64,000 bases of DNA from Elusimicrobiota bacterium (GTDB lineage: Bacteria; Elusimicrobiota; Elusimicrobia; UBA1565). Positions within the stretch are counted from its first letter, which is position 1. Every line of letters starts with the position of its first letter. Position numbers and translations under genes: made by a program. The DNA is taken from assembly GCA_043819795.1 (NCBI GenBank), contig JBDREN010000049.1, positions 2,379 through 66,378 of the forward strand, given 5' to 3'. Below, piece after piece: positions 7,952-35,493 of the stretch. The notes under the pieces were generated by a model. It saw only the letters and a list, made by a program, of their open reading frames with translations, was not told where the DNA came from and searched no databases.

Positions 7952-7958
7952 ACGGGCG

Positions 7959-13441: not shown

Positions 13442-15985
13442 ATGACTTTCCGGCGCGTCGGGCGATTGCTTCTCGTCGCTCTCGGCCTTGCCATGCTCTT
13501 GACCGCGGGAGGCATCGCCCTCCGCCTTCGCGATATGGCCGCCGAGCTCCGCCCCCGGCTGGAGAAAGCCGCATCCAAGCATCTGCGCAGGGAATTGACC
13601 ATCGGGGCCCTGGAGTGGCGCGCGTTTCCAGGGCCCGCCTTGATCGGCAGGAACGTCCTGCTGTTCGAGAAGGACGGCTCCCTTCTGGCGTCGAGCCCCG
13701 AGGTCGTCCTGGAGGCGGCCGTTGGGGAACTGTTGGGCGGGATGGTCGAGATCGAACAGATGACGATCTCTCGGCTGCAGACGCATCTGCTCCGCCGTTC
13801 GGACGGTCTCTGTCCGGTGGCCGAGATGGTGGGGGAGATCGCGCAGGGAGATGCGCCTTCCGGGGCCGACTCCGCGCTCTTCGGGGTCGGGTTCGGGATC
13901 CGCCGGATCGAGCTCACAACGGCGGACATACGCGCTTGGAAGGAAGACGCGCCGCTCGCGCGCACCAGGCTTCTGGCCGACGGCTTCGTCGTGCTCGGCG
14001 GATCGATGCCGTTCCGGCTGGCCGGTCGTTTGGAGCGGGCCGAATCGGGCGGCGACTTGGAGCTGGCGGGGACGTTCGTCCCCGGCCTGGCCGTCCACGC
14101 GAGATCGGAGGGGATGCCGCTGGACGCGCTCCGTGAGATCGCTCCCTCCATCGAGGGATGGACGGGAATGGCCGCGGGCGAGGCCGGCTTGCGGGACGAC
14201 GGCGCGGGGCTTCGCTGGGATGCGGCCGGCACCGTCAAGGGCCTTCGTCCGCCGGGGGAGGCCTCCCTCCCGGAGCTGACCGGCTCCTACGCGCTGTCGT
14301 CCCGTTCGACGTCCACGCTCGTGCTGGCCGCTTCGCATCCTGCGATCCGCGGATCGGCGCGGATGACGTGGGGGGACCCGGCTCGTCCGGGAGTGCGTGT
14401 GGATGTCGACGCGGACCACGTCGACGTCGGGGCGATCCGGGAGATGCTGCTTCGGCCGGCGGGCGAGGCCGGCGTCCCGAGCGACGCGTCGTTCAGGCCC
14501 CCTCCATGGAGACTGTCCGCGCGGATCGGCGGTCTCAGATGGGGCGAGGAGGTCTTGAGACATGCCGTCTTCGAGGGGGCGGGCGCTTCCGACGGCTCGC
14601 TGAAGGCGGGGCCGATCAGCGCCGAGGGATTCGGAGGGCGGTTGCGGGCGGAGATATCGGTCCAGCCGTCCTCCGGACCGGCCGCGGGCTGGAGCGCGCG
14701 CCATGCGCGGCTGGAATGGAGAGCGCGGGACATGCGGCTCGAGCGGGTCCTCCGCGCGCGCGGGTGGCCGCTGAGGGCTTCAGGCACGGTCTCCGGAAGG
14801 GGACGATGGGAGGGGCCGCTGGGGGGACTGCCCGATCTCCATGGCTCGGGACGGGCCGAGCTGATTCTGCGAGAGATCTTTTCCGCGGATATAAGCAGCA
14901 CCACCCCCTTGCTGCCTGAGGTGCGGGGCAAGATCGCGTGGGAGCCGCGGGAGCCCTGGAGCATCGAGCTGAATGCGGGCGACGACTGGTCGGTCCGGGC
15001 CCATGCGCACCCGCCCCCCCTGCGTCGTCTCTCGGCCGAGATCGAGGGGAAGACGCTGGACTTCGAACGCCTCTCCGGATGGACCGCGCTTGTGCGCGAG
15101 GCCGAGGCGCCGGACCCCGGCCGCCCCGCCGATGACGGGTGGGCCATAGACGCTCAGGTGAAGTTCCAGCAGGCCCGATTTCGCGAGGTCCAGCTCGAGG
15201 AGCTGGCCTTGGTGCTGGAGAAGAGGCCGGAGGGACCTGTCCGCATCTCGGGCTTGCGCGCCCGGGGTATGGGAGGCGTTCTGGAGGCCGATCTGGAGCT
15301 ATCCCTCCCCGCGCGGGGAGACCCGCCTGGGCCCGCGTTCTACGGCATCCGATGGAGCACCGATGGAATGGACGTGGAGAGACTCCTGCGCTCTTTCGGC
15401 GCGAAATACATGATATCGGGCGTCGGACGGACCAGCGGCCGCCTGAGAGGGCCCTTGGATCGGCTGAAATGGGGGCATGCAACGGGGACTATCGACATCG
15501 AGGTCGGGGATGGGAACGTCTGGCAGGCTCCCGCCCTCGTCAAAGCCCTATCGACGCTGAGCGTCACATCGGCCTTGCGCAGAATAGGACGAAAGGCCGA
15601 TGTCGGCTTCCCTTTCCGCACTGGGCGGGCTCAGATCGAGCTGGGCGGCGGCAAAGCGGTCATCCGCGCTCCTGCGCACCTTGAGAACCCCAGCCTCAAG
15701 ATCGCCTTCATCGGAACCTACGACCTGGCTGAAGAGACGATAGACGGACGCTTTGTGATCTATTTCCTCACGGTCGTGGACGAGGTCCTGCGCGTAGTCC
15801 CCGGCGTACGCAGACTGCTGTTCAACAAGCGCATGGGGCTGGTGCCCATCTGGGTCGAGGTGAAGGGTCCCCGCCAGGACCCGAAAGTCACGATCCTCCC
15901 GGCAAGGTCGATCTCCGATGCTCTCTGGCAGCCGGTGAGCAGCGTCTTCCACCTCCCGCTGGACCTCATCAAGAAAGCCGAATAG
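13442..15985 (+). CDS. AsmA family protein (outer-membrane/lipid-transport associated)
   Basis: 847 aa with an N-terminal signal-anchor RLLLVALGLAMLLTAGGIAL, a long repetitive beta-rich body, and a C-terminal AsmA-type block (IDGRFVIYFLTVVDEVL..VKGPRQDPKVTILP). Confidence 0.7.
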   Translation: MTFRRVGRLLLVALGLAMLLTAGGIALRLRDMAAELRPRLEKAASKHLRRELTIGALEWRAFPGPALIGRNVLLFEKDGSLLASSPEVVLEAAVGELLGGMVEIEQMTISRLQTHLLRRSDGLCPVAEMVGEIAQGDAPSGADSALFGVGFGIRRIELTTADIRAWKEDAPLARTRLLADGFVVLGGSMPFRLAGRLERAESGGDLELAGTFVPGLAVHARSEGMPLDALREIAPSIEGWTGMAAGEAGLRDDGAGLRWDAAGTVKGLRPPGEASLPELTGSYALSSRSTSTLVLAASHPAIRGSARMTWGDPARPGVRVDVDADHVDVGAIREMLLRPAGEAGVPSDASFRPPPWRLSARIGGLRWGEEVLRHAVFEGAGASDGSLKAGPISAEGFGGRLRAEISVQPSSGPAAGWSARHARLEWRARDMRLERVLRARGWPLRASGTVSGRGRWEGPLGGLPDLHGSGRAELILREIFSADISSTTPLLPEVRGKIAWEPREPWSIELNAGDDWSVRAHAHPPPLRRLSAEIEGKTLDFERLSGWTALVREAEAPDPGRPADDGWAIDAQVKFQQARFREVQLEELALVLEKRPEGPVRISGLRARGMGGVLEADLELSLPARGDPPGPAFYGIRWSTDGMDVERLLRSFGAKYMISGVGRTSGRLRGPLDRLKWGHATGTIDIEVGDGNVWQAPALVKALSTLSVTSALRRIGRKADVGFPFRTGRAQIELGGGKAVIRAPAHLENPSLKIAFIGTYDLAEETIDGRFVIYFLTVVDEVLRVVPGVRRLLFNKRMGLVPIWVEVKGPRQDPKVTILPARSISDALWQPVSSVFHLPLDLIKKAE

Positions 15986-18830: not shown

Positions 18831-19823
18831 TCACTTCCATCTGGCGCGCCAGCCCCGGGCGTCTATATGGACGAAGGGCGGGTGGCCGGGGTTTCTACGG
18901 TAGCGCGCCAGGCCGCCCGTCAGGCGGCTCAAGACCGGCTTCCCGAACAGCTCGTCGACCAGGCGGTGAAGGACGTCCGCGTCCCTCCAGTCGGACCTGC
19001 CGTCTCCGTTGAGATCGTCCATGTCGCCGTCTTTCGGCGACTGGTCGACGAAGATGTCCGCGCCCCCGCCCCAGAGATGCCTGCTGTGCTTGACCCGGCC
19101 GATCGCGCGGTTGTGGTGGGGGGTGCGGTAGCCGCTCATGATGTGGAAGGTGTCGGCCCGGTGCCCCTTTTTGTTGAGGGCTTCGAGCAGGAGCTCGAGC
19201 TTGAGCAATAGACGCTCCCGCAGCACGAGGTACTTGGGGAAACCGGACTTCTGCTTGCAGAGGAACTGTCCGAGCGAGAAGTGCGGCGAGACGGGGCGCG
19301 CCATGTTCTCGGCGGTCACCTCCACGAAGCCCGCGGGGGGCTTGTAGATGGGAAGGCCCCGGAAAGGCTTGGCCGGATACTCCCCGATGCGGTATCCGTT
19401 CAGGACTCCTTTGCTGACGCGTGAGTAAGGGACCATCACGAAGGCGTTCAGGAGGATGTCGTCCCCGGACTTCACGCGCGACACGCGGAGCGCGAAGGAG
19501 CCGTGCGTCGATGGGGCCTTCCAGACCCACTTCCGCGGCTCTTTGCGGACCACGTCCCCGGCCTCCGCCCACAGCGTGAACTCCTGCGCGTCCTCCCCGT
19601 CCAGCGCCTCGACGTCCAGACTCTCTCCCGGCAGCACGAATACCGCGAAGACCCGGTATGGGACCGGCTCGCCTTTGACCCTGACCACGAACCCGGCCCG
19701 GCCCGGATCGAAGGGGGGATCGGAGCCGGCCGAGATCGGCGCAGGACGAGACAGGGATGCGAGGACGCATACGACAGGCAGAAGCGGAAGCAGCCGCGAG
19801 CTTCGGCCGAGGCGGATGCTCAT
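18831..19823 (-). CDS. Peptidase M15A / DUF882 (MepK/YcbK-like cell-wall peptidase), exported
   Basis: Signal peptide. C-terminal M15-type block HIMSGYRTPHHNRAIGRVKHSRHLWGGGADIF...FVHIDARG. The 4-nt overlap (19820-19823) with the upstream L,D-transpeptidase gene indicates one operon. Confidence 0.8.
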   Translation of the reverse strand: MSIRLGRSSRLLPLLPVVCVLASLSRPAPISAGSDPPFDPGRAGFVVRVKGEPVPYRVFAVFVLPGESLDVEALDGEDAQEFTLWAEAGDVVRKEPRKWVWKAPSTHGSFALRVSRVKSGDDILLNAFVMVPYSRVSKGVLNGYRIGEYPAKPFRGLPIYKPPAGFVEVTAENMARPVSPHFSLGQFLCKQKSGFPKYLVLRERLLLKLELLLEALNKKGHRADTFHIMSGYRTPHHNRAIGRVKHSRHLWGGGADIFVDQSPKDGDMDDLNGDGRSDWRDADVLHRLVDELFGKPVLSRLTGGLARYRRNPGHPPFVHIDARGWRARWK

Positions 19824-21556
19824 GGCTCAGGCGGCGTCGAGAGTAGAGCCAGCGCGACGGCTTCGTCCCGTTCGTAGACGTCGCGCCGGAAGTGGACCGC
19901 GCCATCGCCTTCGGCCCACGCGGTCCAGTAGAGGAGATGGACCGGTATGGGCCGTGGAAGCCGCACCGTCCGCTCCTCGCCGGCCTCGATGGCGGCAAGG
20001 ATGCTCTCGCGGCTCCACGCGGGATCGTCCTCGAGCGCCCGCACGGCGAGCTCCAGGGGTCTCTCCACGCGGATGCAGCCCGAGCTGAACGTGCGCGTCC
20101 CTTCGGCGAACAGGCGTCTATCCGGCGTGTCGTGCAGGTAGACGCTGAACTCGTTCGGGAGCATGAATTTGATGCGGCCGAGGGCGTTGAGCGGGCCGGG
20201 CTCCTGCACGAGGCGGTACGGGAAGTCCTCCTCATTGAGGGAGGCCCAGCCGACGGAGTCCGGGTCCACCTCCACCGTCTCGCCCCCGCGGCTTTCATAG
20301 ACCCGCATCCGTTGGCGCTTCAGATAGCGAGGATCCCTTTGGATCTCCGGGAGCTTGTCCGCCACCGCGATGCTGCGCGGGACGTTCCATGAGGGGTTGA
20401 GCACCAGGTACGTCATCCTGTCGCTGAACATGGGAGTGCGCCGGTAGGCGCGGCCGATGATGACGCTCATCCTCAGCGCCTCACGGCCGTCTTCCTGCAT
20501 GCGCAGGCTGAAATCCGGGACATTGACCAGGATGTGCCGGTCCCCGAAGTCCTGCGGCATCCATCGCCACCGCTCCATGTTCACGACGATCTGCTGCGCC
20601 CGGCGCGCCGGGGATACGTTGATCTCCGCGATCGTCCGGGCGCCCGCCACCCCGTCCGCGTCGAGCCCGTGGCGCGCTTGGAAGCGGCGGACCGCCCGTT
20701 CCAGCTCTTCGTCATACAGTTCCGGCGCGGCCGTGCCGGTCCGCTCGATGTCGCCCAAGACCGCCAGCCTGCGGCGCAGCAGAGCGACCGCCGCCCGGCG
20801 GGCGCCGGGGCGCAGGACGGGCGCGGAGGGGATGGCCGTCCACTTGGTCCGCGAGCCCAGACTCCGGTAATGCGCCAGAGCCTCGCGCAGCTTCCAGTAT
20901 CCCGGATCCCTCGGCAGAAGGCCTCTAAGGGCGGCGGAGACCTCCCCCGACGCGAGCGCGTCCTCGAGCACCCTCTCGACGTCGCCTTCCCGCCCGTGGA
21001 CATGCCACTCGGCGTCCAGGGACTGCGGGTTCAGCCGGCCGGACAGGAGGTGCGACGCGTAGACCAGAAAGGCGTCCGTCATGAGGATGTCCGCTTCGGC
21101 CGCCATGTCCCGTGCCCGAGGGGATGCCGGGAGATTTTCGGGCGGCAAAGCCTCGATGGCGCTCAGGTGGTAGTCCTCGGGACGCAGCCCTTCCCGATCC
21201 GCATCGCGCAGGGCCGCGAGCAGCCGGCGTCCGCCCGCATTGAGGCCTCCCTCGGCGACCCACGCCGGCAGGAAGCCTCGCCGCTCATAGAAGGCGGGCA
21301 GGGCAAGCCTGGCGTGCACGCGCTCGTGCCGGGAGGATATCCTCGCGGGCAGGCCCGCGGTCTCGATACGGCGCCTTATCCCCTCGGCGACGCGCTGCTC
21401 CCGATCCGCCTGGGCGGCGGCCGGGACGCGGATCGCGCAGAGCGCGCCGAGGCACAGGCCGGCGAGGATGGCGCGGCGGCGCCCCATCTTCGAGGAGATC
21501 CCGGGGCAGGGAAGACGCCGCCGCCCGTCGGCGGGGTCACTGCGCGCGGCGGGCAT
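19820..21556 (-). CDS. L,D-transpeptidase, YcbB/LdtD-like (PG-binding + YkuD domains)
   Basis: PG_binding_1-like LERAVRRFQARHGLDADGVAGARTIAEINV. YkuD catalytic block VYLHDTPDRRLFAEGTRTFSSGCIRVERP. An alternative start at 21487 gives the signal peptide MGRRRAILAGLCLGALCAIRVPAAAQA. Confidence 0.85.
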   Translation of the reverse strand: MPAARSDPADGRRRLPCPGISSKMGRRRAILAGLCLGALCAIRVPAAAQADREQRVAEGIRRRIETAGLPARISSRHERVHARLALPAFYERRGFLPAWVAEGGLNAGGRRLLAALRDADREGLRPEDYHLSAIEALPPENLPASPRARDMAAEADILMTDAFLVYASHLLSGRLNPQSLDAEWHVHGREGDVERVLEDALASGEVSAALRGLLPRDPGYWKLREALAHYRSLGSRTKWTAIPSAPVLRPGARRAAVALLRRRLAVLGDIERTGTAAPELYDEELERAVRRFQARHGLDADGVAGARTIAEINVSPARRAQQIVVNMERWRWMPQDFGDRHILVNVPDFSLRMQEDGREALRMSVIIGRAYRRTPMFSDRMTYLVLNPSWNVPRSIAVADKLPEIQRDPRYLKRQRMRVYESRGGETVEVDPDSVGWASLNEEDFPYRLVQEPGPLNALGRIKFMLPNEFSVYLHDTPDRRLFAEGTRTFSSGCIRVERPLELAVRALEDDPAWSRESILAAIEAGEERTVRLPRPIPVHLLYWTAWAEGDGAVHFRRDVYERDEAVALALLSTPPEP

Positions 21557-22144: not shown

Positions 22145-22687
22145 ATGGAAGCCGTAAACGCTTTGTTCGCCGGGCCGTGGGGACCCCTCATCATCTTCGC
22201 GCTCCGCATCTGCGACGTGTCGATCGCGACCATCCGGATGCTATTGATGATGCGGAGCGCGAAAATGATCGTGCCGATCCTCGCGTTCTTCGAGATCCTC
22301 ATCTGGATATTCGCGATAGGCAGCGCCATCAAGAACCTCAACAGCCCCTGGCATATCCTGGGCTACGCCGGAGGCTTCGCCACAGGGACCGTCGTGGGGA
22401 TGTGGATCGAGGAGAAGCTCGCCTACGGCTATGCCACGGCCCGCTTCATCTCGAAGAAATCCGGAGCCGAGCTGGGCGCGATCCTCAGGGAGAGGGGGTT
22501 CGGCGTCACCGAGCTCTCGGGCCGGGGCCGCGAGGGCGAGGTGGCCGTCTTCGTCAGCGTTGTCCGGCGCAAAGAGCTTGAGGACCTCGTAGCGGCGGCT
22601 CAGCAGGCGGACCCGGACATCTTCGTGACGGTCGAGGAAACGCGGTCGATCGCCCGGGGATGGCTGTTTCCCAGGAGACGGAAGTAA
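22145..22687 (+). CDS. UPF0316/DUF2179 family membrane protein
   Basis: Three N-terminal TM helices (LIIFALRICDVSIATIRMLLMMR..) followed by a soluble DUF2179-like domain (GFGVTELSGRGREGEVAVFVSVVRRKE). Confidence 0.7.
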   Translation: MEAVNALFAGPWGPLIIFALRICDVSIATIRMLLMMRSAKMIVPILAFFEILIWIFAIGSAIKNLNSPWHILGYAGGFATGTVVGMWIEEKLAYGYATARFISKKSGAELGAILRERGFGVTELSGRGREGEVAVFVSVVRRKELEDLVAAAQQADPDIFVTVEETRSIARGWLFPRRRK

Positions 22688-22893: not shown

Positions 22894-24000
22894 ATGACGG
22901 ACCCCGGCCAGCCGGCGCAGGGCGACCCCGCCGCCTTCAACCCCCTCGACGGGGCCGAGGGGGATCCTTCCGTCTTCTGGGAGGAGGTCGCCGGACTCCG
23001 GAGAGTGGCCGCGGATCGCGCCGAGCCGCTGGAGCGCCGCCTCGAAGCCTTCGAGGACATTATGGAGTCCGAGGTCGGGGACACGTCGTTCTTGCGCGCC
23101 CGCAAGCTGGAGAGCGAGTTCTCCCTGCGCCAGATCTACCTCAAGTTCGAGGGGGGCAACCCCACCGGCACGCAGAAGGACCGCATCGCTTTCTCCCAGG
23201 TGCTCGACGCCATGCGCCGGGGCTTCGACGCCATCACCCTCGCCACCTGCGGGAACTACGGCGTCGCGGCCGCCCTCGCCGCCTCCATGTGCCGGCTGCG
23301 CTGCATCGTGTACGTCCCGGAGACCTACCGCCCGAGCCGGCTGGGCGAGATCCAGGATCTCGGCGCGGAGGTCGTGCGCGCCGGCGGGGACTACGAGGCG
23401 GCGGTGGCCCTTTCCAGCGAGCGCGCCGCCAAGGAGGAGCTCTACGACGCCAATCCAGGAGGCCAGAACACCCTGCTCCAGCTGCGGGCCTACGGGGAGA
23501 TCTCCTATGAGATCTACGACGAGCTGCGCGACGCTCCCGCCGCCGTGGCCGTGCCCGTGTCCAACGGCACCACCCTCGCCGGGATCTACAAGGGCTTCCT
23601 GAGCCTTTACCGCCGGGGCAAGACCTCCCGGATGCCCAGGCTCGTGGCCGGCTCGGCTTTCAACAAGAATCCCATCGTCCTGGCCTTCCGGAGGGGCAGG
23701 CCCGTCTGCGAGGACCTTCCTCCCCATGTGGTCCGGGAGTCCCGGGTCAACGAGCCGCTGATCAACTGGCATTCCAGCGACGGCGACCACGCGCTGGAAG
23801 CCCTCAGGAAGAGCCATGGCTGGGCGCACAACGCCACGGACCGGATGATGACCGACTTCTGCCGCCTGCTCCGCGAGAAGGAGGGCTACCACGTGCTGCC
23901 CGCCTCCACCGCGGGCCTCATCGCCCTGCTGGAGAGGAACAAAAGCGAGCGGCTCCCGAGCGACCGCTACGTGGCCGTCCTGACGGGTAAGAAGGCATGA
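22894..24000 (+). CDS. PLP-dependent enzyme, threonine-synthase-like (fold type II, PALP)
   Basis: LKFEGGNPTGTQKDRIAF (PLP-lysine motif), ATCGNYG, and the VSNGTTLAG glycine-rich phosphate loop. Confidence 0.75.
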   Translation: MTDPGQPAQGDPAAFNPLDGAEGDPSVFWEEVAGLRRVAADRAEPLERRLEAFEDIMESEVGDTSFLRARKLESEFSLRQIYLKFEGGNPTGTQKDRIAFSQVLDAMRRGFDAITLATCGNYGVAAALAASMCRLRCIVYVPETYRPSRLGEIQDLGAEVVRAGGDYEAAVALSSERAAKEELYDANPGGQNTLLQLRAYGEISYEIYDELRDAPAAVAVPVSNGTTLAGIYKGFLSLYRRGKTSRMPRLVAGSAFNKNPIVLAFRRGRPVCEDLPPHVVRESRVNEPLINWHSSDGDHALEALRKSHGWAHNATDRMMTDFCRLLREKEGYHVLPASTAGLIALLERNKSERLPSDRYVAVLTGKKA

Positions 24001-25091
24001 CCGGGTTTCCCGAGGGCCGCGCGGTCGTCTACTGCCAGGGAGCCTTCGCCACCCCCAACGGGAAGACGGCGCACGGGCTGGTCCGCTTCACGCGGCGCTA
24101 CGAGGTCCTCTCCGTCGTGGACGGTTCCTGCGCGGGGCGGGACGCCGGCGTGGTGCTGGACGGCAGGCATCGGGGCATCCCCGTCCTGGCGACCCTGGAG
24201 GAGGCCCTGAAGCACGGCAAAGACGCCGGCCGGCCGGCCACCCACCTGGTGGTCGGGCTCGCGCCCGACGGAGGCCGCCTGCCCCCTTCCGCCAAAGATG
24301 ACATGGCGGCGGCCATCCGGGCCGGGCTGCACGTGGACAGCGGGCTGCACGACTTCCTGAGCGAGGACCCGCTGCTGAGCCGGCTGGCCGCGGAGCGGGG
24401 GGTGCGGATCCGCGACGTGCGCAAGCCCCCGTCGCGCAACGAGCTGAGCTCCTTCAGCGGCCGCATCCGCCAAGTCCGCGCCCCGCGGCTCGCGGTGCTC
24501 GGCACGGACTCGGCGCTCGGCAAACGCACGACAGCCGTGCTCCTGACGGAGGCCCTCCGGGGGCTCGGCTGCAACGCGGAGTTCATCGGGACGGGGCAGA
24601 CGTCGTGGCTGCAGGGGGCGCGCCACTGCATCGTGCTGGATTCCATCATCAACGATTTCGTCGCGGGGGAGATCGAGCGCGTCGTCTGCCTCGCGGACGA
24701 GCGCGAGAACCCCGACGTGATCGTCATCGAGGGCCAGGGCAGCCTGCTCAACCCCGCCTATCCGGGGGGCTTCGAGATACTGGCCGCCGCGCGTCCGGAG
24801 CTGATCGTCCTGCAGCACGCCCCGGCCAGGACGCACTACGACGGCTTCCCGGACTGTCCGATGGACCCGCTCGACCGGCAGATCCAGGCGGTCGAGCTCA
24901 TCGGCAGGAGGCCGCCGGCGGCGATCACGCTCAACCACGAGGGATTGGACGAAGGCCGGATCCCGGCCGTCTGCGAGGATATCTCCCGGAGGACCGGCCT
25001 CCCCGTGTTCGACGTCCTGCTCCAGGGCGCGCAGCCGCTCGCCCGGAGGATCCTCTCCGAAGCCAAGTCGCTATGCCGGCCGTCCGCATGA
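23997..25091 (+). CDS. DUF1611 domain protein (DgcN-like)
   Basis: ATGA overlap with the upstream gene. N-terminal AVVYCQGAFATPNGKTAHGLVR, P-loop-like VLGTDSALGKRTTAVLL, IVIEGQGSLLNPAYPG. Confidence 0.75.
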   Translation: MTGFPEGRAVVYCQGAFATPNGKTAHGLVRFTRRYEVLSVVDGSCAGRDAGVVLDGRHRGIPVLATLEEALKHGKDAGRPATHLVVGLAPDGGRLPPSAKDDMAAAIRAGLHVDSGLHDFLSEDPLLSRLAAERGVRIRDVRKPPSRNELSSFSGRIRQVRAPRLAVLGTDSALGKRTTAVLLTEALRGLGCNAEFIGTGQTSWLQGARHCIVLDSIINDFVAGEIERVVCLADERENPDVIVIEGQGSLLNPAYPGGFEILAAARPELIVLQHAPARTHYDGFPDCPMDPLDRQIQAVELIGRRPPAAITLNHEGLDEGRIPAVCEDISRRTGLPVFDVLLQGAQPLARRILSEAKSLCRPSA

Positions 25092-25110
25092 CGGGGCAGG
25101 AGGTTTTAAG

Positions 25111-27492
25111 ATGACTTCTAGGGACGCGGCCGGCGACGCCCCTAAGCCGCGCCGCAGGGCCGGCGCCGAGCCTTCGAGCCATCTCGCCGCCCTGCTCTGT
25201 CTCGACGAGCTCCGGGTGGGCCCCCCCAGGCTCGAGCCCCGGAGACTGACGGTGCCCTATGCCGCGACCCGCGACGGCCGCGCCGAGAGCCTGGAGCTCG
25301 TCTACAAGTACGACGAGGACGTCTTCGACCCCGAGGACGAAGGCCACCGCAACCTGGCTTCCATGATCGGCGCCCAGGTGGCGCTGAACTACGGCCTGTT
25401 CTGCCGGGGCATCCGCTTCGACGGGACCTACTCGGAGGCGGACCGCCGGTTCATCGTGGAGATGGCCGAGAACACGGCGCGGGAGATCCTGGTAAAGAAG
25501 CTGCTCCAGCCGAACCCGTTCCTCGTGCCGGACTTCGCCCCGCTGCGGCCGGGGAAGCTCGATACGTACTCCCAGGCCCGAATCCGGTTCTCCTCCCCCG
25601 TGACGGGGGACCGTCAGGTGCCCTGGCAATCCTGGGAGACGAGCCACGAGCGGCTCGCGGTGCTCTCCAGCGGCGGCAAGGACAGCCTCCTGAGCTTCGG
25701 CCTGCTCCAGGAGCTCGGCCGGGAGACGCATCCCATCTTCATCAACGAGTCCGGCCGGCACTGGTTCACCGCGTTCAACGCCTTCAAGCGGTTCAAGGAG
25801 GATGTGCCCCTCACGGCCAAGGTCTGGACCAACGCGGACCAGATGTTCTCCTGGATGCTGCGGCGGCTGCCGTTCATCCGCCGGGACTTCTCCGAGGTGC
25901 GCTCCGACGACTACCCGATCCGTCTGTGGACGGTGGCCGTATTCCTGTTCGGCGCCCTTCCGCTCTTGCGCCGGCGCGGCATCGGCCGCCTCGTCATCGG
26001 CGACGAGTACGACACGACGCGCCGCAGGCGGCATCTCGGCATCCGGCACTACGACGGCCTTTTCGACCAGAGCCGCTACTTCGACAATTATGTGTCGCGC
26101 TACTTCCTGGGCAAGGGCTGGGCCGTGAGCCAGTTCTCCCTGCTGCGCCCCTTGTCCGAGCTTCTGGTCCAGAAGACGCTGGTCGAGCGCTATCCCGATC
26201 TCCAGAGGCTGCAGGTCTCCTGCCACGCCGCCCACATGCGGGAGGGGGCGGCGCGGCCCTGCGGCGGCTGCGAGAAGTGCCGCCGCGTGGTCGGGATGCT
26301 CCTGGCCGCGGACGCGGACCCCTCGCGCTGCGGCTACACCCCGGCGCAGGTCGAAAGCTGTCTCTCCCAGATGGGCAGCAAGGGCGTGCATCAGGAGGAA
26401 GCCTGCTGGCGGCACGTGCTGTTCCTGCTGCGATCCAAGGGGCTCCTCCGCCGGGAAGGGCCCCTGATCGCGCGGGCGGAGGAGAAGCCCGAGGCGCTCA
26501 GCCTGCGCTTCGACGGCGAACGCGCGCCCCTGGACGCCGTCCCCGTGGACCTGCGCCGCCCCCTCTACCGCATCCTCCTGGGCCACGCCGCGGGCGCGAT
26601 GAGGCGGGTGGAGCGGCGCTGGGCGCCCTTCGACCTGCTGGCCGACCGCGGTCTCGCGAAGACCTACCCCTTCGAGTTCGAGACCAAGCGTCAGCCGGGG
26701 GAAGGCGCTCCCCGCAGCTATCTTTACGGCGAGCTGACCTGGCCCGAGATGACGGAGAGGCTGCGGAAGGTCGACCTCGCCCTCCTCCCCGTGGGCGCGA
26801 TCGAGCAGCACGGGCCGCACCTGCCGCTCGACACCGACGCATTCGACGCCGCCTACCTGGCGAGCCGGGTCGCCGAGGCGTGCGGCAAGCCCCAGCCCCT
26901 GGTCCTTCCGGGCATCCCATACGGCGTCTCGTATCACCACGACGAATTCAAGGGCACCGTGAGCATCCGGAACGGCACGCTCTCCGGCCTCGTCTACGAC
27001 GTCGGCATGAGCCTGGCCCGCAACGGCATCCGGAAGCTCGTCATCATCAACGGCCACGGCGGGAACAGCCCGGCGCTCAACTACGCCGCGCAGATGATCA
27101 ACCGCGACGCCCGCATCTTCGTCTGCGTCGATACCGGCGAGACCAGCGACGTGGACATCAACGAGCTGATCGAGACGCCCAACGACGTGCACGCCGGCGA
27201 GATCGAGACCAGCACGGCCCTGGCGGTCCGGCCGGAGCTGGTCCGGATGCGCCTGGCCAAGCGCTCCGTCCCGAGGTTCTCCAGCCGCTATCTCGACTTC
27301 AGCTCGAAGCGCAGCATCTCCTGGCACGCCCACACCAAAAGGATCTCCGAGAGCGGCGTGATGGGCGACCCCACGCGCGCGAGCCGGGAGAAGGGCCGGC
27401 GTATCTGGGAGATCATGGTCGCCCACCTGGTCAACCTGGTGGAGGAGCTGAAATCCTTGAGCCTCGAAGAGATATGCCAGCGCCGCTACTGA
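25111..27492 (+). CDS. Fusion protein: PP-loop ATP pyrophosphatase-like domain + creatininase-family amidohydrolase domain
   Basis: SGGKDS PP-loop at 25669-25686 (LAVLSSGGKDSLLSFG) and a CGGCEKC motif in the N-terminal half. The C-terminal ~250 aa carry creatininase blocks LPVGAIEQHGPHLPLDTD, INGHGGN, HAGEIETS. Confidence 0.75.
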   Translation: MTSRDAAGDAPKPRRRAGAEPSSHLAALLCLDELRVGPPRLEPRRLTVPYAATRDGRAESLELVYKYDEDVFDPEDEGHRNLASMIGAQVALNYGLFCRGIRFDGTYSEADRRFIVEMAENTAREILVKKLLQPNPFLVPDFAPLRPGKLDTYSQARIRFSSPVTGDRQVPWQSWETSHERLAVLSSGGKDSLLSFGLLQELGRETHPIFINESGRHWFTAFNAFKRFKEDVPLTAKVWTNADQMFSWMLRRLPFIRRDFSEVRSDDYPIRLWTVAVFLFGALPLLRRRGIGRLVIGDEYDTTRRRRHLGIRHYDGLFDQSRYFDNYVSRYFLGKGWAVSQFSLLRPLSELLVQKTLVERYPDLQRLQVSCHAAHMREGAARPCGGCEKCRRVVGMLLAADADPSRCGYTPAQVESCLSQMGSKGVHQEEACWRHVLFLLRSKGLLRREGPLIARAEEKPEALSLRFDGERAPLDAVPVDLRRPLYRILLGHAAGAMRRVERRWAPFDLLADRGLAKTYPFEFETKRQPGEGAPRSYLYGELTWPEMTERLRKVDLALLPVGAIEQHGPHLPLDTDAFDAAYLASRVAEACGKPQPLVLPGIPYGVSYHHDEFKGTVSIRNGTLSGLVYDVGMSLARNGIRKLVIINGHGGNSPALNYAAQMINRDARIFVCVDTGETSDVDINELIETPNDVHAGEIETSTALAVRPELVRMRLAKRSVPRFSSRYLDFSSKRSISWHAHTKRISESGVMGDPTRASREKGRRIWEIMVAHLVNLVEELKSLSLEEICQRRY

Positions 27493-27508
27493 GCCGGCCG
27501 GGGCCGCG

Positions 27509-28579
27509 ATGAGGATCGCCCGCTGCGAGGCCTGGCTCGTGGAGATGCCCCTGTCCGAGCCCTACGAGATCGCCTATGAGAAGGTCGACAAGGCTCGAAA
27601 CGTGTTCCTGCGCGTCGAGACCACCCGGGGGACCTCGGGCTTCGGCTGCGCGGCGCCGGACCCGAACATCACCGGCGAGACCGTCGAGCAGGCGCTGGCC
27701 GCTCTGCGGGACGCGGCCCCGCCCGTCCTGAAAGGGCTCGATCCCCTGCGCCCGGTCATGGTCATGGAGCGGTTCAAGGTGTCTCTTCAGGCCTTCCCCT
27801 CCGCTCGCGCTGCGATCGACATGGCGCTCCACGACATCTTGGGAAAGGAAGCGGGGCTCCCCCTGTGGAAGCTCCTGGGCGGGTTCCGTTCATCCTTCCG
27901 GACCACCGTCACGCTGGGGATCATGGGCGTCCGCGAGTCCGTCGATAGGTCCCTGGAGATGGCGGCCCGCGGCTTCAAGGCGCTGAAGATCAAGGGGGGG
28001 CTGGACGCGGAGCAGGACGTCGAGCGGCTGGTCCGTATCCGGGAAGCGGTGGGGCCCAGGATCGAGCTGCGATTCGACGCCAACCAGGGCTATACGGCCG
28101 AGCAGACGGCGCGGTTCCTCCGCCGGACGCGCCCGGTCAAGCTGGAGCTCATCGAGCAGCCCACGCCGAGCAAGGACCTCGACCAGCTGGAGCGCGCGAC
28201 CCGGATGGCCTCGATCCCCGTGATGGCCGACGAGAGCCTCATCAACCTCCGGGACGCCTTCCGCCTCGTCCGCAGGGGCATCGCGGACATGGTGAACATC
28301 AAGCTGATGAAGTGCGGCGGCATCACGGAGGCTCTCAACATCAACTCGGTGGCCAAGGCCGGGGGCTACGAGGCGATGGTCGGCTGCATGGACGAGTCGG
28401 CCCTTGCGATCGCGGCCGGCCTGGCTTTCGCCCTGTGCCGGCCGAACGTCGCCTATGCGGACCTGGACGGACACCTGGGCCTGGCGGGCGATCCGTTCGA
28501 GGGGTCGGTCGTGCTGAAGGAAGGAGTGCTCTATCCCACCGGGGCTCCGGGCCTGGGCTGCAAGGCGCCGCGGTCATGA
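27509..28579 (+). CDS. Enolase-superfamily dipeptide epimerase / N-acyl-amino-acid racemase-like enzyme
   Basis: MR/MLE-type pattern: ALKIKGG, RFDANQGYT, ELIEQP, MADESL, NIKLMKCGGI, GCMDES (catalytic Lys pair and Asp/Glu/Asp metal ligands). Confidence 0.85.
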   Translation: MRIARCEAWLVEMPLSEPYEIAYEKVDKARNVFLRVETTRGTSGFGCAAPDPNITGETVEQALAALRDAAPPVLKGLDPLRPVMVMERFKVSLQAFPSARAAIDMALHDILGKEAGLPLWKLLGGFRSSFRTTVTLGIMGVRESVDRSLEMAARGFKALKIKGGLDAEQDVERLVRIREAVGPRIELRFDANQGYTAEQTARFLRRTRPVKLELIEQPTPSKDLDQLERATRMASIPVMADESLINLRDAFRLVRRGIADMVNIKLMKCGGITEALNINSVAKAGGYEAMVGCMDESALAIAAGLAFALCRPNVAYADLDGHLGLAGDPFEGSVVLKEGVLYPTGAPGLGCKAPRS

Positions 28580-30941: not shown

Positions 30942-32255
30942 ATGCCCACGCGCACGTTGGCCGTTGCCGCCGTCCGGCAGCTGATCGAAGCCGATCCTAG
31001 ACGGGCCGCGTTCTTCCTAGAGGGCCTCGACATCAATGATGCGGGAGCCATGCTGGCCGCCTTGCCGCCGTCCTCCGCGCGCCGCCTCTTCAAGCACCTC
31101 CAGCCCGCCTTCGCGGGCAGGATGCTGAGCGCCTTGCGGCCGGACAGTGTCGCCGCGGTCCTGGAGAGTGTCGAGCCCGAAGCCGCGGTCGATGCCTTCC
31201 GCTCCATGGAGAACGGGGTCCGTCAGACGGTGCTGGGCGCTCTTTCCGAGCAGAGGAAGATCGCGCTTCAGGAGCTGTTGGCCTATCCGGAAGGGAGCGC
31301 GGGCAGGCTCATGAGCACCGACGTCGTGTCCTTCATCCAGGGGACCAAGGTGCGCGAAGTCATCCAGAGGCTGCGCGCGGCCGTCAGGAAGGGCTCGTCG
31401 CCGACGTACGCCTACGTCGTCGATGAGGACCGGAAGCTCAAGGGGGTCCTGGTGATGCGGGACCTGCTCTTCGCGGATTCGGGCGCGCCGATCGAGAGCG
31501 TGATGAGCCCGGGGGTCAAGGCCGTATCCGGCTTCACGGACCGCGAGGATTTGGTCCAGCTGGCCAAGGAGAGACGCTACCTCTCGGTGCCGGTGGTGGA
31601 CGCGGACGGACGGATCCTCGGCTCGGTGCGCATGGCCGAGCTCCTGGAGTCCAGCCAGGAGGAGGCCGGCGAGGACATCCAGCTCATGTTCGGCGGGAGC
31701 GCGGACGAGAGGCCGTTCTCTCCGGTCTCGTTCAAGCTGGCGCGAAGGCTGCCGTGGCTCCATGTGAACCTCGTTACGGCCTTCATGGCCGGGGCGGTGG
31801 TGGCCCTCTTCGAGGGACTGATCAGCCAGCTGGCCGTGCTCGCGGTGTTCCTGCCGATCATCGCGGGGCAGGGGGGCAACGCCGGGACCCAGACGCTGTC
31901 CGTGGTCCTGCGCGGCCTCATCATGCGGGAGATCCGGCCCCGGGACGCTTGGCGCGCGATCGTCAGGGAGTCGGGGGTGGGCGCGATCACCGGCCTGGTC
32001 ACGGGCGTGGTGACCGCAGGCGTGGCGTGGCTGTGGAAGGGGAACCTGTTTCTGGGGCTCGTCGTGGGGCTCGCCATGATCGTGAACCTGGTCGCGGCGG
32101 GGGCCGCGGGCGCGGTCATACCGCTGGCCATGAAGAGGCTCGGCTTCGACCCGGCCCAATCCTCGGGCATCATCCTTACCACGGTGACGGACGTCGTCGG
32201 TTTCTTCGCCTTCCTGGGCTTCGCGTTCCTGTTCCGGAGCCGGCTCATCGGATGA
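30942..32255 (+). CDS. mgtE: Magnesium transporter MgtE
   Basis: N-domain, tandem CBS region (PVVDADGRILGSVRMAELL) and TM domain with IAGQGGNAGTQTLSVVLRGL. Confidence 0.9.
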   Translation: MPTRTLAVAAVRQLIEADPRRAAFFLEGLDINDAGAMLAALPPSSARRLFKHLQPAFAGRMLSALRPDSVAAVLESVEPEAAVDAFRSMENGVRQTVLGALSEQRKIALQELLAYPEGSAGRLMSTDVVSFIQGTKVREVIQRLRAAVRKGSSPTYAYVVDEDRKLKGVLVMRDLLFADSGAPIESVMSPGVKAVSGFTDREDLVQLAKERRYLSVPVVDADGRILGSVRMAELLESSQEEAGEDIQLMFGGSADERPFSPVSFKLARRLPWLHVNLVTAFMAGAVVALFEGLISQLAVLAVFLPIIAGQGGNAGTQTLSVVLRGLIMREIRPRDAWRAIVRESGVGAITGLVTGVVTAGVAWLWKGNLFLGLVVGLAMIVNLVAAGAAGAVIPLAMKRLGFDPAQSSGIILTTVTDVVGFFAFLGFAFLFRSRLIG

Positions 32256-32268
32256 GCGCGCGCCGCGA

Positions 32269-35200
32269 TCACCGGAAGGCGAAGTTGAGCAGGATGTCGA
32301 TGACGTACGTGCCGTCGCTCGAGTCGCGGCCCTCCAGGCTCCAGCGGGGCGAGAGCGTGTAACGCGCCTCGACGCGCCTCTGCCCCGCGGGTCCCAGCGT
32401 CTGGCCGTAGGTCACGAAGAGCCGCTTCGTGAGATACTTCCCGGCGGTCACGTCCGCTTCCCGCGCCCCCCTGGCACGCACCTGGAAGGTGTCGATCTTG
32501 GCCTTGCGGATGACGTGCCGATGGAGGCTCCGGGAGACGTACTCGGTGAACAGCCGGGCCGCTTCCTCCCGCTTCTTCTTGGAGTCGCTCTCCGATCCCA
32601 GATCGTAGACGGGCTTTCCCAGGGTGAGCATGGAGATGATGTCGCGCTGCTCCATGGGGGGCTCCGAGCTCAGAGACACGACGGGCCGGCTGGCCGTGCC
32701 GCTCAGGTCAAGGAAGACCTTGGCCCGCGTGCCCTGGTCCACGTAGACGGCTCGGACGTCGATGGTGGGATCCGGGGGAGCCGCGCCCGAGAACTCGGCG
32801 CGCCCTTCCCGGATATCGAACGGCCGGCCGTAGATGACGTAGCGGCCCTGCAGGGTCCGCACCGCGCCCAGGATCCGGGCGGGCTCGCTTTGCTCTTTCT
32901 TCACGAGGAGCTCGCCTTTGGTCTCTATGTCGCTCGCGCCCTGCCGGAACCAGGCGTTCCTGTCGAAGCGCACGCGCAGGTCGAGCTGCAGCGGGGACAT
33001 CTCCGCCCGCGCGGAAGCCTTCAACTCCCGGGCCCCGCGCGCGGGGGCGCGCGGGGAGGCCGGAGCCTCGGGCTTCTTGGGGGGCGGCATGAATTCGGCC
33101 TCGGAGAGCGCGATCGTCCCTCCCACCCGGAGGGCTTTCCAGGCTCCTTTCAGGCCGACGTCGAGGTCCGCCTCTCCCGAGAGGCCGGCCTCGGAGCGGA
33201 AAGGAAGGTTCCGCGCCGAGACGAGTAGATCAGGCCCGTCCAGCCCGGCCTCGCCGGACAGCGTCAGGGTCCCGCGCGGCTCCTCTATCTTCCGTTCGAA
33301 TATCCCGGAGAGCCTTCGGGCGACGCGCCGCAGCAGGCCGGCCAGCGGCGGCTCCTGTCCCAGAGGGACCGCCGATCCCCGCAACGACAGGGCCGGTCGT
33401 CCTTCTCCAACGGCGCTTAGGGTCACGCCGGTCAGCGTTATCCCGGCCGCGGGGATGCGGACGGCTTCCGCGCGCAGAGCCGCCTCGCCGTCGCAGAACG
33501 GCGCGCCGGCGCGCCGGCCGACGCGCATCCGCCCCGAGAGCCGGCTTGACTCCGGAACGATCGCGTCGGACCAAGCGGCCAGGGGAGCGGGATCGAACCC
33601 GTCCGCTTCCAGGTCCACGAGGAAGTCGGGGGTCTCGCCCCCGCCGAAAGCCAGCGGCGCCGTGCCGCGGAGGGTCAGCGTTCCCCCTCCGGATTCCCAG
33701 AGCAGAGTCTCGACGCGCAGGGTCTTCCCGTCGGAGGAGAGCCTGCCAGAAATGTCGCCCAGCGGCCGTCTCCGCCAATGCCCGTCTCGGAGCCGGAAGG
33801 CCGCCTTCCCCGACGGCGCGGACAGCGCGCCTTTCAGCTCGATCGCGGCGTCCACCTCTCCGTCCAATGGGACCGTGCGGACGCCTATGTGCCGCAGAAA
33901 GGCGGGGTCGAAGCCGGACGCGGTCATCCGGAGGCGCTCGAAGATGGTCCCCCTCGCGGCCGCGTCGACCGCGAGCCGCGCCTTCCCATCCGAGACCGCG
34001 AGGCTCGAGACCGACCAGGCGCCGGACCCGATCTCGGTCTTGAACGGCGTCGAGCTGCGGTATACCCGCCCCGCGTATGCTTGAAGCTCTTTCCAACGCA
34101 CGGTCCAGACGCCGCCGGCGAGCGCGCCGCTCCCTCTCGCCGCCAAAGTACCGCCGGAGACCGCCGCCTCCCAATCGGTCGTGTGCGAGGAGGTCGAGCC
34201 TGAGAGGGATACCCGCGCCTCATCCAGGGAGACCGCCCCGGCGCGCAGTCCCGCCGCGACCACCCGCACGTCCATGACGGCCGGCCGCAAGCCGCGGCCC
34301 GCGGCGGTGAATGCCGCGCTGGAGAGGCGGATGGTTTCGTGGTCCAGGCCTTCCATCCGGCCTTCGGCCCGCCATCGCAAGGCCGGCCACGTTCCGGAGA
34401 CCGATCCCGCGGCCCGCATCCCCGCCGCCCAGGTCCCGGCCAGGCGTCGGATCGCGGCCGCGTCCGCCTCCAGCGTCCAGGTCGCCCGAACGACGCCGGA
34501 CTCGAAGGAGCCTAGGGAGGAGGCGGAGGCTCCCGCCGTGGAGAGCTCCACGCGCCAGTCCGTTCTTCCCTCCGCCGTATGTCCCTTCGCCTGGAGGCGG
34601 AGGCCTCCCTCCTCTTGCAGATCGAACAGGCCCGCGGATATTCCTCCCGGACCGGGACCGCCGCCCTTTGCCTGGAGGTCGCCGGAGACGGGCGCGATCC
34701 GGAAAGGCAGGGCGATCATCAAGTCGGCCGGGTCCAGCCGGGCCAGGTTCCCCTGGAAATGCCAGGCGTTCTCCTTGTCCGAGCGGGCGGCGACAGAGAG
34801 CGACGGTTTCCGTCGCTTCTTGATCTCGGCGTTGGCCTTCCAGCCTTCCGCATCGCGGGTCCACCGGAAGGACCCCTCGATGTCGCGGTCCCAGCGCAGG
34901 GTCGTGTTCACGGAGAGAGGGGCAAAACCGACCGTGCCTGTGGCATTCATCTCCCGCCCCGCCATGCGCCACGTGGCTGATTCGAGGTGAACGCGCTCTT
35001 CGTCCACGCGCAGGCGGGCGTCCAGACGTTCGATCCGGCCGGGCAGGATCGCGGAAGGGGGCTCCCATATGATGGCCCCCTCCTGGATGCTGGCTCGGAG
35101 GAGGGATATGATCCAGGCCGGCTTCTTGCGCGCGGAAGAATCCGGCAGGGATGTTTCCCCGGGCGGTTTGAGCCGCAGGGTCGGCCGGGTCAGCGCCAGC

Positions 35201-35493
35201 GATGTCACGATCACGCGCTTGCGCAACAAAGACTTCGCGTCTACCTTCATGGCCAAGCGGGGAACCGCGAGGACGCCTGCGGGCCAGCTCAGCTCGACGT
35301 CGTGGAGCACGAGGCCTTCGGCGGGGCTTCCCGATACGCCGCCGACTTCCACGCGCACGCCCGTCCGGGCCTCGAGCCAGGAGGCCGCTTTTTCGACGAA
35401 CGGTCCCGGAATCCTGAGCGCCGCGGTCGCCGGCCCGGCGACGGCCGCCATCGCCGCCGCGAGGAGCGCAAAGTGAAGGGGCTTGCGGCCCAT
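32269..35493 (-). CDS. tamB: Translocation and assembly module subunit TamB-like (DUF490)
   Basis: ATG 35493 shares its A with the tamA stop (TGATG). Signal-anchor MGRKPLHFALLAAAMAAVAGPATA and C-terminal DUF490-type block LFVTYGQTLGPAGQRRVEARYTLSPRWSLEGRDSSDGTYVIDILLNFAF. The upstream part of the 1314-aa ORF overlaps tamA and is not coding. Confidence 0.8.
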   Translation of the reverse strand: MGRKPLHFALLAAAMAAVAGPATAALRIPGPFVEKAASWLEARTGVRVEVGGVSGSPAEGLVLHDVELSWPAGVLAVPRLAMKVDAKSLLRKRVIVTSLALTRPTLRLKPPGETSLPDSSARKKPAWIISLLRASIQEGAIIWEPPSAILPGRIERLDARLRVDEERVHLESATWRMAGREMNATGTVGFAPLSVNTTLRWDRDIEGSFRWTRDAEGWKANAEIKKRRKPSLSVAARSDKENAWHFQGNLARLDPADLMIALPFRIAPVSGDLQAKGGGPGPGGISAGLFDLQEEGGLRLQAKGHTAEGRTDWRVELSTAGASASSLGSFESGVVRATWTLEADAAAIRRLAGTWAAGMRAAGSVSGTWPALRWRAEGRMEGLDHETIRLSSAAFTAAGRGLRPAVMDVRVVAAGLRAGAVSLDEARVSLSGSTSSHTTDWEAAVSGGTLAARGSGALAGGVWTVRWKELQAYAGRVYRSSTPFKTEIGSGAWSVSSLAVSDGKARLAVDAAARGTIFERLRMTASGFDPAFLRHIGVRTVPLDGEVDAAIELKGALSAPSGKAAFRLRDGHWRRRPLGDISGRLSSDGKTLRVETLLWESGGGTLTLRGTAPLAFGGGETPDFLVDLEADGFDPAPLAAWSDAIVPESSRLSGRMRVGRRAGAPFCDGEAALRAEAVRIPAAGITLTGVTLSAVGEGRPALSLRGSAVPLGQEPPLAGLLRRVARRLSGIFERKIEEPRGTLTLSGEAGLDGPDLLVSARNLPFRSEAGLSGEADLDVGLKGAWKALRVGGTIALSEAEFMPPPKKPEAPASPRAPARGARELKASARAEMSPLQLDLRVRFDRNAWFRQGASDIETKGELLVKKEQSEPARILGAVRTLQGRYVIYGRPFDIREGRAEFSGAAPPDPTIDVRAVYVDQGTRAKVFLDLSGTASRPVVSLSSEPPMEQRDIISMLTLGKPVYDLGSESDSKKKREEAARLFTEYVSRSLHRHVIRKAKIDTFQVRARGAREADVTAGKYLTKRLFVTYGQTLGPAGQRRVEARYTLSPRWSLEGRDSSDGTYVIDILLNFAFR

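Follow-up and report, generated by a model that had tools for sequence, protein, structure and literature searches.

What does a gene set do when each of its members belongs to a known superfamily and the set as a whole maps to no described pathway? We examined this question for four same-strand genes in a stretch of 64,000 nucleotides (nt) from an Elusimicrobiota bacterium (contig JBDREN010000049.1), the whole of which is called the window here. They encode a pyridoxal phosphate (PLP) enzyme of the PALP family (gene 1), a DUF1611 protein (gene 2), a fusion of a PP-loop ATP pyrophosphatase module to a creatininase-fold amide hydrolase (gene 3), and an epimerase of the enolase superfamily (gene 4). 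We find that they constitute an amino-acid tailoring set with an uncharacterised PP-loop family at its centre, which shares parts with the DgcN/DgcA pair, the dipeptide epimerases, QueC and Cap9 (distantly also MurL), and creatininase and MftE, without falling under the definition of any of them. No model organism carries the operon, which is why it has gone unnoticed so far, and the current annotations of its proteins ("threonine synthase", "creatininase family protein" and "muconate cycloisomerase") are misleading. Our preferred answer, held tentatively, is that the operon makes a small amide.

Gene order and conservation of the operon

The four open reading frames (ORFs) have a GC content at third codon positions (GC3) of 0.91-0.93 in a window of 67% GC, indicating that they are genuine genes (Table 1). 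Their coordinates and junction sequences bear out the spacing given in the original prediction: genes 1 and 2 overlap by 4 nt (ATGA), the 19-nt gap between genes 2 and 3 contains AGGAGG 8 nt before the gene 3 start, and 16 nt separate genes 3 and 4. Location on one strand, short or overlapping junctions and a gene order kept across distant genomes together identify the four genes, at the level of sequence, as an operon. A promoter and terminator scan of the operon gave no informative consensus.

Co-conservation of the four genes had been chosen beforehand as a test that could refute the prediction. We scanned one genome per GTDB species, which yielded at least 527 tblastn-confirmed relatives, and fetched the best 80 of these (at least 527) relatives; gene content was scored by tblastn with the four window proteins over 81 non-duplicate related loci. 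Co-conservation holds: all four genes are present in the same order in 63 of the 81 loci, while 9 loci are cut by a contig end and otherwise consistent, 7 carry only the PALP and fusion genes, and 2 miss the epimerase. The complete loci amount to 63 of the 72 that can be evaluated and come from more than 12 phyla. Identity to the window proteins is 49-70%, with medians of 64% for PALP, 60% for DUF1611, 60% for the fusion and 59% for the epimerase, and the median junctions across loci are -4, 12 and 6 nt. Such an arrangement is far beyond chance.

The verified carriers comprise at least about 70 species from more than 12 bacterial phyla. They include Desulfobacterota, Ignavibacteria, Bacteroidales, Rhodothermales, Planctomycetota, Chitinivibrionia, Elusimicrobiota, Gemmatimonadota, Latescibacterota, Zixibacteria, Krumholzibacteria, Calditrichota, KSB1 and Acidobacteriota (Holophagae, Aminicenantes, Thermoanaerobaculia). 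Three carriers are in culture, namely Desulfosarcina variabilis, D. alkanivorans PL12 and strain NaphS2, which makes the question directly testable. The operon sits among housekeeping genes of equal GC content. We rejected a mobile island, given that the GC content equals that of the flanks and that there is no integrase and no tRNA; PADLOC returned no defence-system match, and the plasmid collection contained no match to the operon.

This distribution bears on whether the operon could encode a specialised antibiotic or antimetabolite pathway, analogous to that of D-cycloserine. The D-cycloserine pathway combines PLP-dependent beta-replacement, racemisation, ATP-dependent ring closure and a hydrolase for self-protection or maturation. 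The reaction types suggested by the four genes match this set, and in one lineage an MFS transporter gene is divergent from the operon. However, a fixed gene order at such identities in so many species and phyla is unlike the patchy distribution of secondary-metabolite clusters, the surroundings are housekeeping genes of matching GC content, and the operon comes without resistance, nonribosomal peptide synthetase, polyketide synthase or regulator genes and without plasmid copies. We regard a specialised pathway as very unlikely.

Catalytic units and their nearest known systems

Pfam and NCBIfam searches called PALP in gene 1, DUF1611_N and DUF1611 in gene 2, Creatininase in gene 3 (amino acids (aa) 541-777 only) and MR_MLE_N and MR_MLE_C in gene 4. 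Together with the motifs and a structural model described below, these calls support the enzyme content originally proposed, namely a PLP enzyme, a DUF1611 protein, a PP-loop::creatininase fusion and a dipeptide-epimerase-type enolase. The DUF1611, epimerase, PP-loop and creatininase-fold parts all miss the NCBIfam equivalog cut-offs (DgcN, DgcA, L-Ala-D/L-Glu epimerase, MurL, MftE and creatininase), and the sole cut-off passed in the operon is that of a "threonine synthase" model by gene 1. Full-text literature searches on the gene set and on its components (DUF1611, creatininase with PP-loop, the gene triplet, YitT/DUF2179) turned up no description of it. The claim that the set maps to no described pathway therefore stands.

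Gene 1 encodes a fold-type-II PLP enzyme (Pfam PALP, 183 bits). It scores 408.7 bits against the NCBIfam model PRK06381 (NF004996), cut-off 266, whose name "threonine synthase" appears never to have been tested experimentally, whereas it reaches 87.8 bits against TIGR00260 thrC, cut-off 167, and falls far below the cut-offs of the remaining ThrC models. The nearest solved structures are ThrC 6CGQ and 1UIM, at only 95 bits. Lys95 in the motif GTQKDR aligns with the PLP lysine of threonine synthases. Arg160 of Thermus thermophilus ThrC, which we take to be a phosphate ligand, aligns with Gln196 of gene 1. We rejected a true threonine-biosynthesis operon, as the context is not that of threonine biosynthesis and the other ThrC models were missed.

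Gene 2 matches Pfam DUF1611 (213 bits) and DUF1611_N (88.5 bits) and consists of a Rossmann-like N domain followed by a P-loop C domain with a Walker-A-like GTDSALGKRTT at aa 169-179. Its relatives in the PDB are 2OBN, 2G0T and 7XRJ, and its only NCBIfam match is DgcN (NF041892), which is to our knowledge the only characterised relative of this DUF1611 protein. Genes 2 and 4 had been likened to the DgcN/DgcA pair, and the likeness is that the same two protein families occur in one operon. Family membership was upheld and orthology was not: gene 2 scores 162.6 bits against DgcN, far short of the cut-off of 480, and gene 4 scores 170.1 bits against DgcA (NF042940), cut-off 400. Unlike the DgcN/DgcA genes, the pair is interleaved here with the PLP enzyme and the PP-loop::hydrolase fusion, and it is dispensable in Desulfobacterales variants. 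The epimerase also differs in keeping a free-amine DxD site and in carrying Glu at position 24.

The nearest solved relatives of gene 4 are the dipeptide epimerases 3RIT, 3JVA and YkfB 1TKK (237, 235 and 213 bits). Residues K160, K162, K268, D190, E216, D241, D318 and D320 are each present in 59 of 59 gene 4 orthologues and align with YkfB K162/K268 and D321/D323. Gene 4 thus has the KxK motif and second catalytic Lys, the three carboxylate metal ligands (Asp/Glu/Asp) and the DxD site that define dipeptide epimerases such as YkfB. In YkfB, D321/D323 hold the alpha-ammonium of the substrate, and Arg24 in the capping loop binds the Glu side-chain carboxylate (bioRxiv 10.1101/2022.05.01.490185). 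In contrast, the residue at the position of Arg24 is Glu in 53 of the 59 orthologues; four others have Gln, one has Asp and one has Gly. Position 20, where Thr predominates, is not conserved. Glu in place of the Glu-binding Arg makes Glu and muropeptide substrates unlikely, judging from sequence, and by analogy the substrate of gene 4 may carry a positive side chain. Against the L-Ala-D/L-Glu epimerase models, gene 4 scores 212.4 bits against NF041118, cut-off 500, and 121.2 bits against NF011708, cut-off 343, and murein-peptide recycling genes do not recur near the operon.

These two families raise the possibility of salvage or catabolism of D-amino acids or D-peptides by an extended Dgc-type route, in which DUF1611 would acylate, the epimerase would convert D to L, the creatininase domain would deacylate and the PLP enzyme would deaminate. 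Dipeptide epimerases are known from murein-peptide recycling, and DgcN and DgcA are the only or main models that genes 2 and 4 match. Against this route stand the low scores for both models, Glu24, which speaks against Glu substrates, and an ATP-to-AMP step that would be unusual for it; the gene context, given below, bears on it further.

Gene 3 is divided into a PP-loop module (aa 1-535) and a creatininase-fold part (aa 541-777). The N-terminal ~530 aa have no Pfam match, and a sequence search with the N-terminal 540 aa against the PDB gave a chance match only and no solved relative. A structural model of this part is confident to about aa 520 and superposes on QueC (3BL5) and Cap9 (9NTO), and then on LarE, YcfA, TtuA/NcsA, TilS and the NAD and GMP synthetases. 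SSGGKDS and the four cysteines C371, C384, C387 and C390 are invariant or nearly so in 39 homologues, as are further motifs such as NESGRHW and GDEYD. With an SGGxDS motif in a Rossmann-like alpha/beta fold, the module belongs to the PP-loop ATP pyrophosphatases, and the earlier call was right. According to the model, its closest fold is the carboxylate-adenylating, amide-forming QueC type, and the spacing of the four cysteines appears to resemble the QueC zinc site more than a three-Cys Fe-S site. The module differs from QueC and from Cap9 (of type IV CBASS) in that identity is just 15-18%, in that it matches no Pfam or NCBIfam QueC model, so that the likeness is one of fold and Cys4 motif only, and in its size of 510-535 aa with an additional N-terminal domain and a C-terminal extension. 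We rejected a queuosine or deazapurine pathway, as there are no que or 7-deazaguanine genes among the operon neighbours.

The module also shows a weak match to MurL (NF041275). The fusion reaches 24.7 bits over aa 339-394 (E 7.4e-6) against a cut-off of 700, and a stand-alone relative of the module matches at E 7.2e-10, with consistent positions. The part of the module that the MurL model matches is the Cys-rich, QueC-like one (fusion aa 339-394; protein P0240). When P0240, a MurL-like relative, served as a search seed, six hypothetical proteins came back, none of them MurL. We treat this match as a lead to distant kinship, not as membership, and it raises the prospect that MurL itself may be a divergent PP-loop enzyme. 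MurL, described in reviews as without known domains, converts ATP to AMP, which points to adenylation of a carboxylate (PMC5808125, PMC8788868). The MurL model has 447 positions and is comparable in size to the stand-alone module (460-520 aa); the module differs in being fused here to a hydrolase, in occurring with PALP and DUF1611, archaea included, and in missing a murD2 partner, with no MurD-like gene in any locus examined.

The kinship would allow the operon to be an alternative supply of D-amino acids for the cell wall, with the PP-loop module acting as a MurL-like, ATP-driven one-way epimerase. The position-consistent matches, the use of ATP with release of AMP by MurL (PMC5808125) and the peptidoglycan genes upstream in the window are in line with it. 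However, the score lies far below the MurL cut-off, the operon would need no further, reversible epimerase beside such an enzyme, relatives are also found in archaea that lack murein, and Glu24 speaks against Glu. Among the explanations considered here, we hold this one to be the least probable, and highly improbable in itself.

The creatininase-fold part of gene 3 (PF02633) scores 245.1 bits against a gathering score of 31.3, and E565, H567, D576, H649, H694 and E697, which we assign by sequence as creatininase-type metal ligands, are invariant among homologues. It lies below every equivalog cut-off of the creatininase-fold hydrolases (creatininase, MftE, ArfB, IolN): 112.3 bits against 235 for creatininase proper and 150.9 against 172 for MftE. 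We rejected a mycofactocin-type system, as there are no mft genes nearby. Fusion to a PP-loop module sets the operon protein apart from all these hydrolases, and we found no description of it in the literature. A word-indexed protein search retrieved over 120 homologues that span the whole fusion, with identities of 60-65%. An Elusimicrobiota metagenome-assembled genome (MAG) encodes a protein with 100% identity to the fusion, and an exact-sequence look-up gave no match in the contig index.

Variants and genome neighbourhood

The operon varies among lineages. Several Desulfobacterales carry PALP-fusion-YitT without DUF1611 and the epimerase; in the MAG JASFFJ01 (Desulfobacterales Bin_280) this arrangement is present in three separate copies (L008, L011 and L016). 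When the N-terminal 535 aa of the fusion were used in an exhaustive HMMER search, 438 cluster representatives matched; among them are stand-alone modules, 460-520 aa long, that cover fusion aa 27-510. NC10 has PALP, DUF1611, a PP-loop module and the epimerase, with the creatininase domain absent. PALP, DUF1611, the PP-loop module and a GNAT acetyltransferase adjoin in a Thermoplasmatota archaeon, and a locus that is archaeal by its neighbouring genes has DUF1611 immediately before the PP-loop module and no PALP nearby. On one bacterial contig, the PP-loop module is found with a degenerate paralogue and a GNAT::HDAC-type deacetylase fusion that replaces the creatininase domain, with GNAT, DUF1611 and PALP on the other strand.

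At locus L084, two paralogous PP-loop modules are adjacent (6637-7995 and 8001-9524). In the first, the PP-loop has degenerated to TFGKES in place of SGGKDS and the Cys-rich motif is retained, so the two may form a heterodimer of a catalytic and a non-catalytic subunit; a neighbouring 648-aa protein resembles a GNAT::HDAC-type deacetylase fusion.

The persistent core is the PP-loop module with PALP and/or DUF1611, and the most persistent pair across variants is PALP with the PP-loop module. The pair of DUF1611 and epimerase is not the conserved core. An amide hydrolase of varying fold and an acetyltransferase come and go among the variants, as a scheme of acylation, modification and deacylation would predict.

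The persistence of PALP with the PP-loop module could instead reflect heteroatom transfer. In such a route, the PP-loop module would adenylate a carbonyl or carboxyl oxygen, the side chain of Cys, Ser or diaminopropionate would add, and the PLP enzyme would beta-eliminate to leave a thioamide, thioacid or amidine, while the remaining enzymes would prepare the substrate or set it free. Beta-elimination is typical of fold-type-II PLP enzymes, YcfA/YcfC (6-thioguanine) and the ArgG/ArgH logic are precedents, and the carriers are mostly anaerobes, judged by taxa. However, the cysteine spacing appears QueC-zinc-like and not that of a three-Cys Fe-S site, the best fold match (QueC/Cap9) is amide-forming, sulfur-carrier and cysteine desulfurase genes are not recurrent nearby, and the archaeal locus with DUF1611 and the PP-loop module has no PALP. 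We consider heteroatom transfer distinctly unlikely.

We next consider the genes around the operon, for which ORFs were called in all loci and then clustered, with only about 7 flanking ORFs per locus. Membrane proteins with a DUF2179 domain adjoin the operon in 23 of the 81 loci, plus the window. They belong to two families: YitT+DUF2179 proteins, directly downstream of the operon in 14 loci, and DUF5698+DUF2179 (UPF0316) proteins in 9 loci plus the window, where the gene lies upstream. We know of no function for either family, and the DUF2179 protein may be a transporter or sensor of the operon product. Other recurrent neighbours are CorA (7-8 loci), MgtE (7 loci, the window included), CNNM/CorC (5 loci), MscS (6 loci) and GroEL (8 loci). 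A DUF2179 membrane protein or a Mg2+/MscS gene is found in 34 of the 81 loci, from several phyla.

Two further types of gene are found at fewer loci. A CdaA-type cyclic di-AMP (c-di-AMP) synthase (DAC+YbbR) is near the operon in three loci. In L007 and L009 it comes two genes beyond YitT, after a DUF2914 protein, and in L051 it is on the opposite strand some 5.5 kb downstream, between MgtE and CorA. In three Desulfobacterota a polyamine block of SpeA (arginine decarboxylase), a saccharopine-dehydrogenase-like carboxyspermidine dehydrogenase, an ornithine/diaminopimelate-type decarboxylase and agmatinase lies directly upstream (L050 1-4212, L068 3-3849 and L076 1917-3955), and two more lineages have SpeA or agmatinase in the vicinity of the operon. 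The polyamine block and the operon are separated by the gene for a strongly acidic, small protein (about 115 aa) without a Pfam match. c-di-AMP, Mg2+ transporters, MscS and polyamines all serve cation and osmotic homeostasis, which is the only functional theme in the operon context.

The original prediction had left two options, salvage and biosynthesis of a small amide. The recurrent neighbours include DUF2179 membrane protein, ion, osmotic and polyamine genes, and the neighbour clusters of the 81 loci contain no recurrent ABC or peptide uptake, peptidase or dedicated repressor genes; this context favours biosynthesis and disfavours D-amino-acid salvage. Salvage could draw on the L,D-transpeptidase and M15 peptidase just upstream in the window, on the opposite strand, and on an M15/beta-lactamase-domain gene near one variant locus. 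However, the L,D-transpeptidase is non-recurrent, the M15 match is found in one other locus only (L081), uptake systems and peptidases do not recur beside the operon, and PALP and the fusion persist without DUF1611 and the epimerase. Taken with the evidence from the proteins themselves, salvage seems to us improbable.

Proposed pathway and other features of the window

We therefore favour biosynthesis, and propose, as a reading that we would put somewhat short of even chances, that the operon makes a small amino-acid or dipeptide amide that is handled by the DUF2179 membrane proteins and linked to ion and osmotic balance. With the same reserve, the amide would be used inside the cell or exported. 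All five catalytic units have intact motifs, and the four genes are inherited jointly and, from their junction spacing, apparently translationally coupled. In the first step, the PLP enzyme would carry out beta-replacement or beta-elimination on a Ser- or Thr-derived substrate, either yielding an unusual amino acid or serving as the lyase partner of the PP-loop enzyme. DUF1611 would then N-acylate an amino group, by analogy with DgcN. As a third step, the epimerase would invert the alpha-carbon beside the free carboxylate of an intermediate with a free alpha-ammonium, as its DxD site suggests, and this intermediate probably carries a positive side chain too (Glu24 for Arg24). The QueC/MurL-like module would next adenylate a carboxylate (ATP to AMP and PPi), and ammonia or an amine would give an amide or amidine. 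Finally, the creatininase-fold domain would cleave a second amide, removing the acyl handle or opening a ring. The replacement of the creatininase domain by GNAT and an HDAC-type deacetylase fits this acylate-then-deacylate logic, and if any proteins near the operon handle the product, the DUF2179 membrane proteins are the likeliest to do so.

Several points weigh against this proposal. Every chemical step is assigned from family membership, and the argument for a cationic substrate comes from one residue, Glu24, and analogy with one enzyme. A protein that joins an adenylating domain to an amide hydrolase would suit a degradative route or a rearrangement just as well. Some lineages do without DUF1611, some without the epimerase and some without the creatininase domain, so that our linear order of five steps could be mistaken. 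The link to Mg2+ and osmotic genes is a statistical one, seen in 42% of the loci and not in the others. A clue to the ligand is missing as well: an Rfam scan of the window and 8 related loci found no riboswitch and no RNA family, and no regulator that would give one is present at the operon.

A more specific version, which we offer as speculation and rate as unlikely, is that the operon makes a widespread small organic cation or compatible solute, plausibly the amide of a basic amino acid or dipeptide in D configuration, which peptidases would not attack. Anaerobes living in sediments, from many bacterial phyla, would rely on it together with polyamines to buffer Mg2+ and osmotic stress, with the DUF2179 proteins as transporter or sensor. 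Were this so, it would provide the first function for a new MurL/QueC-related adenylating family, and a product of this kind, new and widespread, would make the operon much more novel than a tailoring set built from known superfamilies. Solving the operon would in any case reveal a new metabolite, probably physiological and not secondary, assign a function to a PP-loop family distantly related to MurL, and give a lead on DUF1611 and the DUF2179 membrane proteins.

Table 1 Coordinates of the operon, its domains and motifs, and other features of the window
Feature	Position (nt)	Strand	Remark
Gene 1, PLP enzyme (PALP)	22894-24000	+	368 aa
Gene 1 Lys95	23176-23178		in GTQKDR
Gene 2, DUF1611 protein	23997-25091	+	364 aa
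Gene 2 Walker-A-like motif	24501-24533		aa 169-179
Gene 3, PP-loop::creatininase-fold fusion	25111-27492	+	793 aa
Gene 3 N-terminal domain	25174-25635	+	aa 22-175; weakly resembles RNase-H/ASKHA-like folds
Gene 3 QueC-like PP-loop ATP pyrophosphatase domain	25636-26310	+	aa 176-400
Gene 3 SSGGKDS motif	25666-25686	+	aa 186-192; in PP-loop domain
Gene 3 four-Cys cluster	26221-26280	+	C371, C384, C387, C390; in PP-loop domain
Gene 3 helical/beta region	26311-26715	+	aa 401-535; belongs to PP-loop module, shared with stand-alone homologues
Gene 3 creatininase-fold metal-dependent amide hydrolase domain	26731-27441	+	aa 541-777
Gene 4, enolase-superfamily epimerase	27509-28579	+	356 aa
Gene 4 Glu24	27578-27580	+	
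Gene 4 D318-x-D320	28460-28468	+	DxD motif
DUF5698+DUF2179 membrane protein (UPF0316 type)	22145-22687	+	Pfam; 206 nt upstream of operon
MgtE Mg2+ transporter	30942-32255	+	Pfam MgtE, MgtE_N, CBS; 2.4 kb downstream
M15-family peptidase	18831-19823	-	
YkuD L,D-transpeptidase	19820-21556	-	with Scaffold and PG_binding_1 domains
AsmA/DUF748-like protein	13442-15985	+	847 aa
TamB/YhdP-like protein	32269-36213	-	1314 aa
Protein with PPDK_N match	5072-7951	+	959 aa; sole Pfam match (pyruvate phosphate dikinase ATP-binding) at C-terminal end; first ~680 aa without assignment

An Rfam search of the whole 64-kb window on both strands found no family at the gathering score, tRNA included. With a 4-nt overlap, the M15 peptidase and L,D-transpeptidase ORFs resemble a pair for the remodelling of peptidoglycan. 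The TamB/YhdP-like and AsmA/DUF748-like proteins indicate that this Elusimicrobiota genome has outer-membrane lipid or protein transport machinery.

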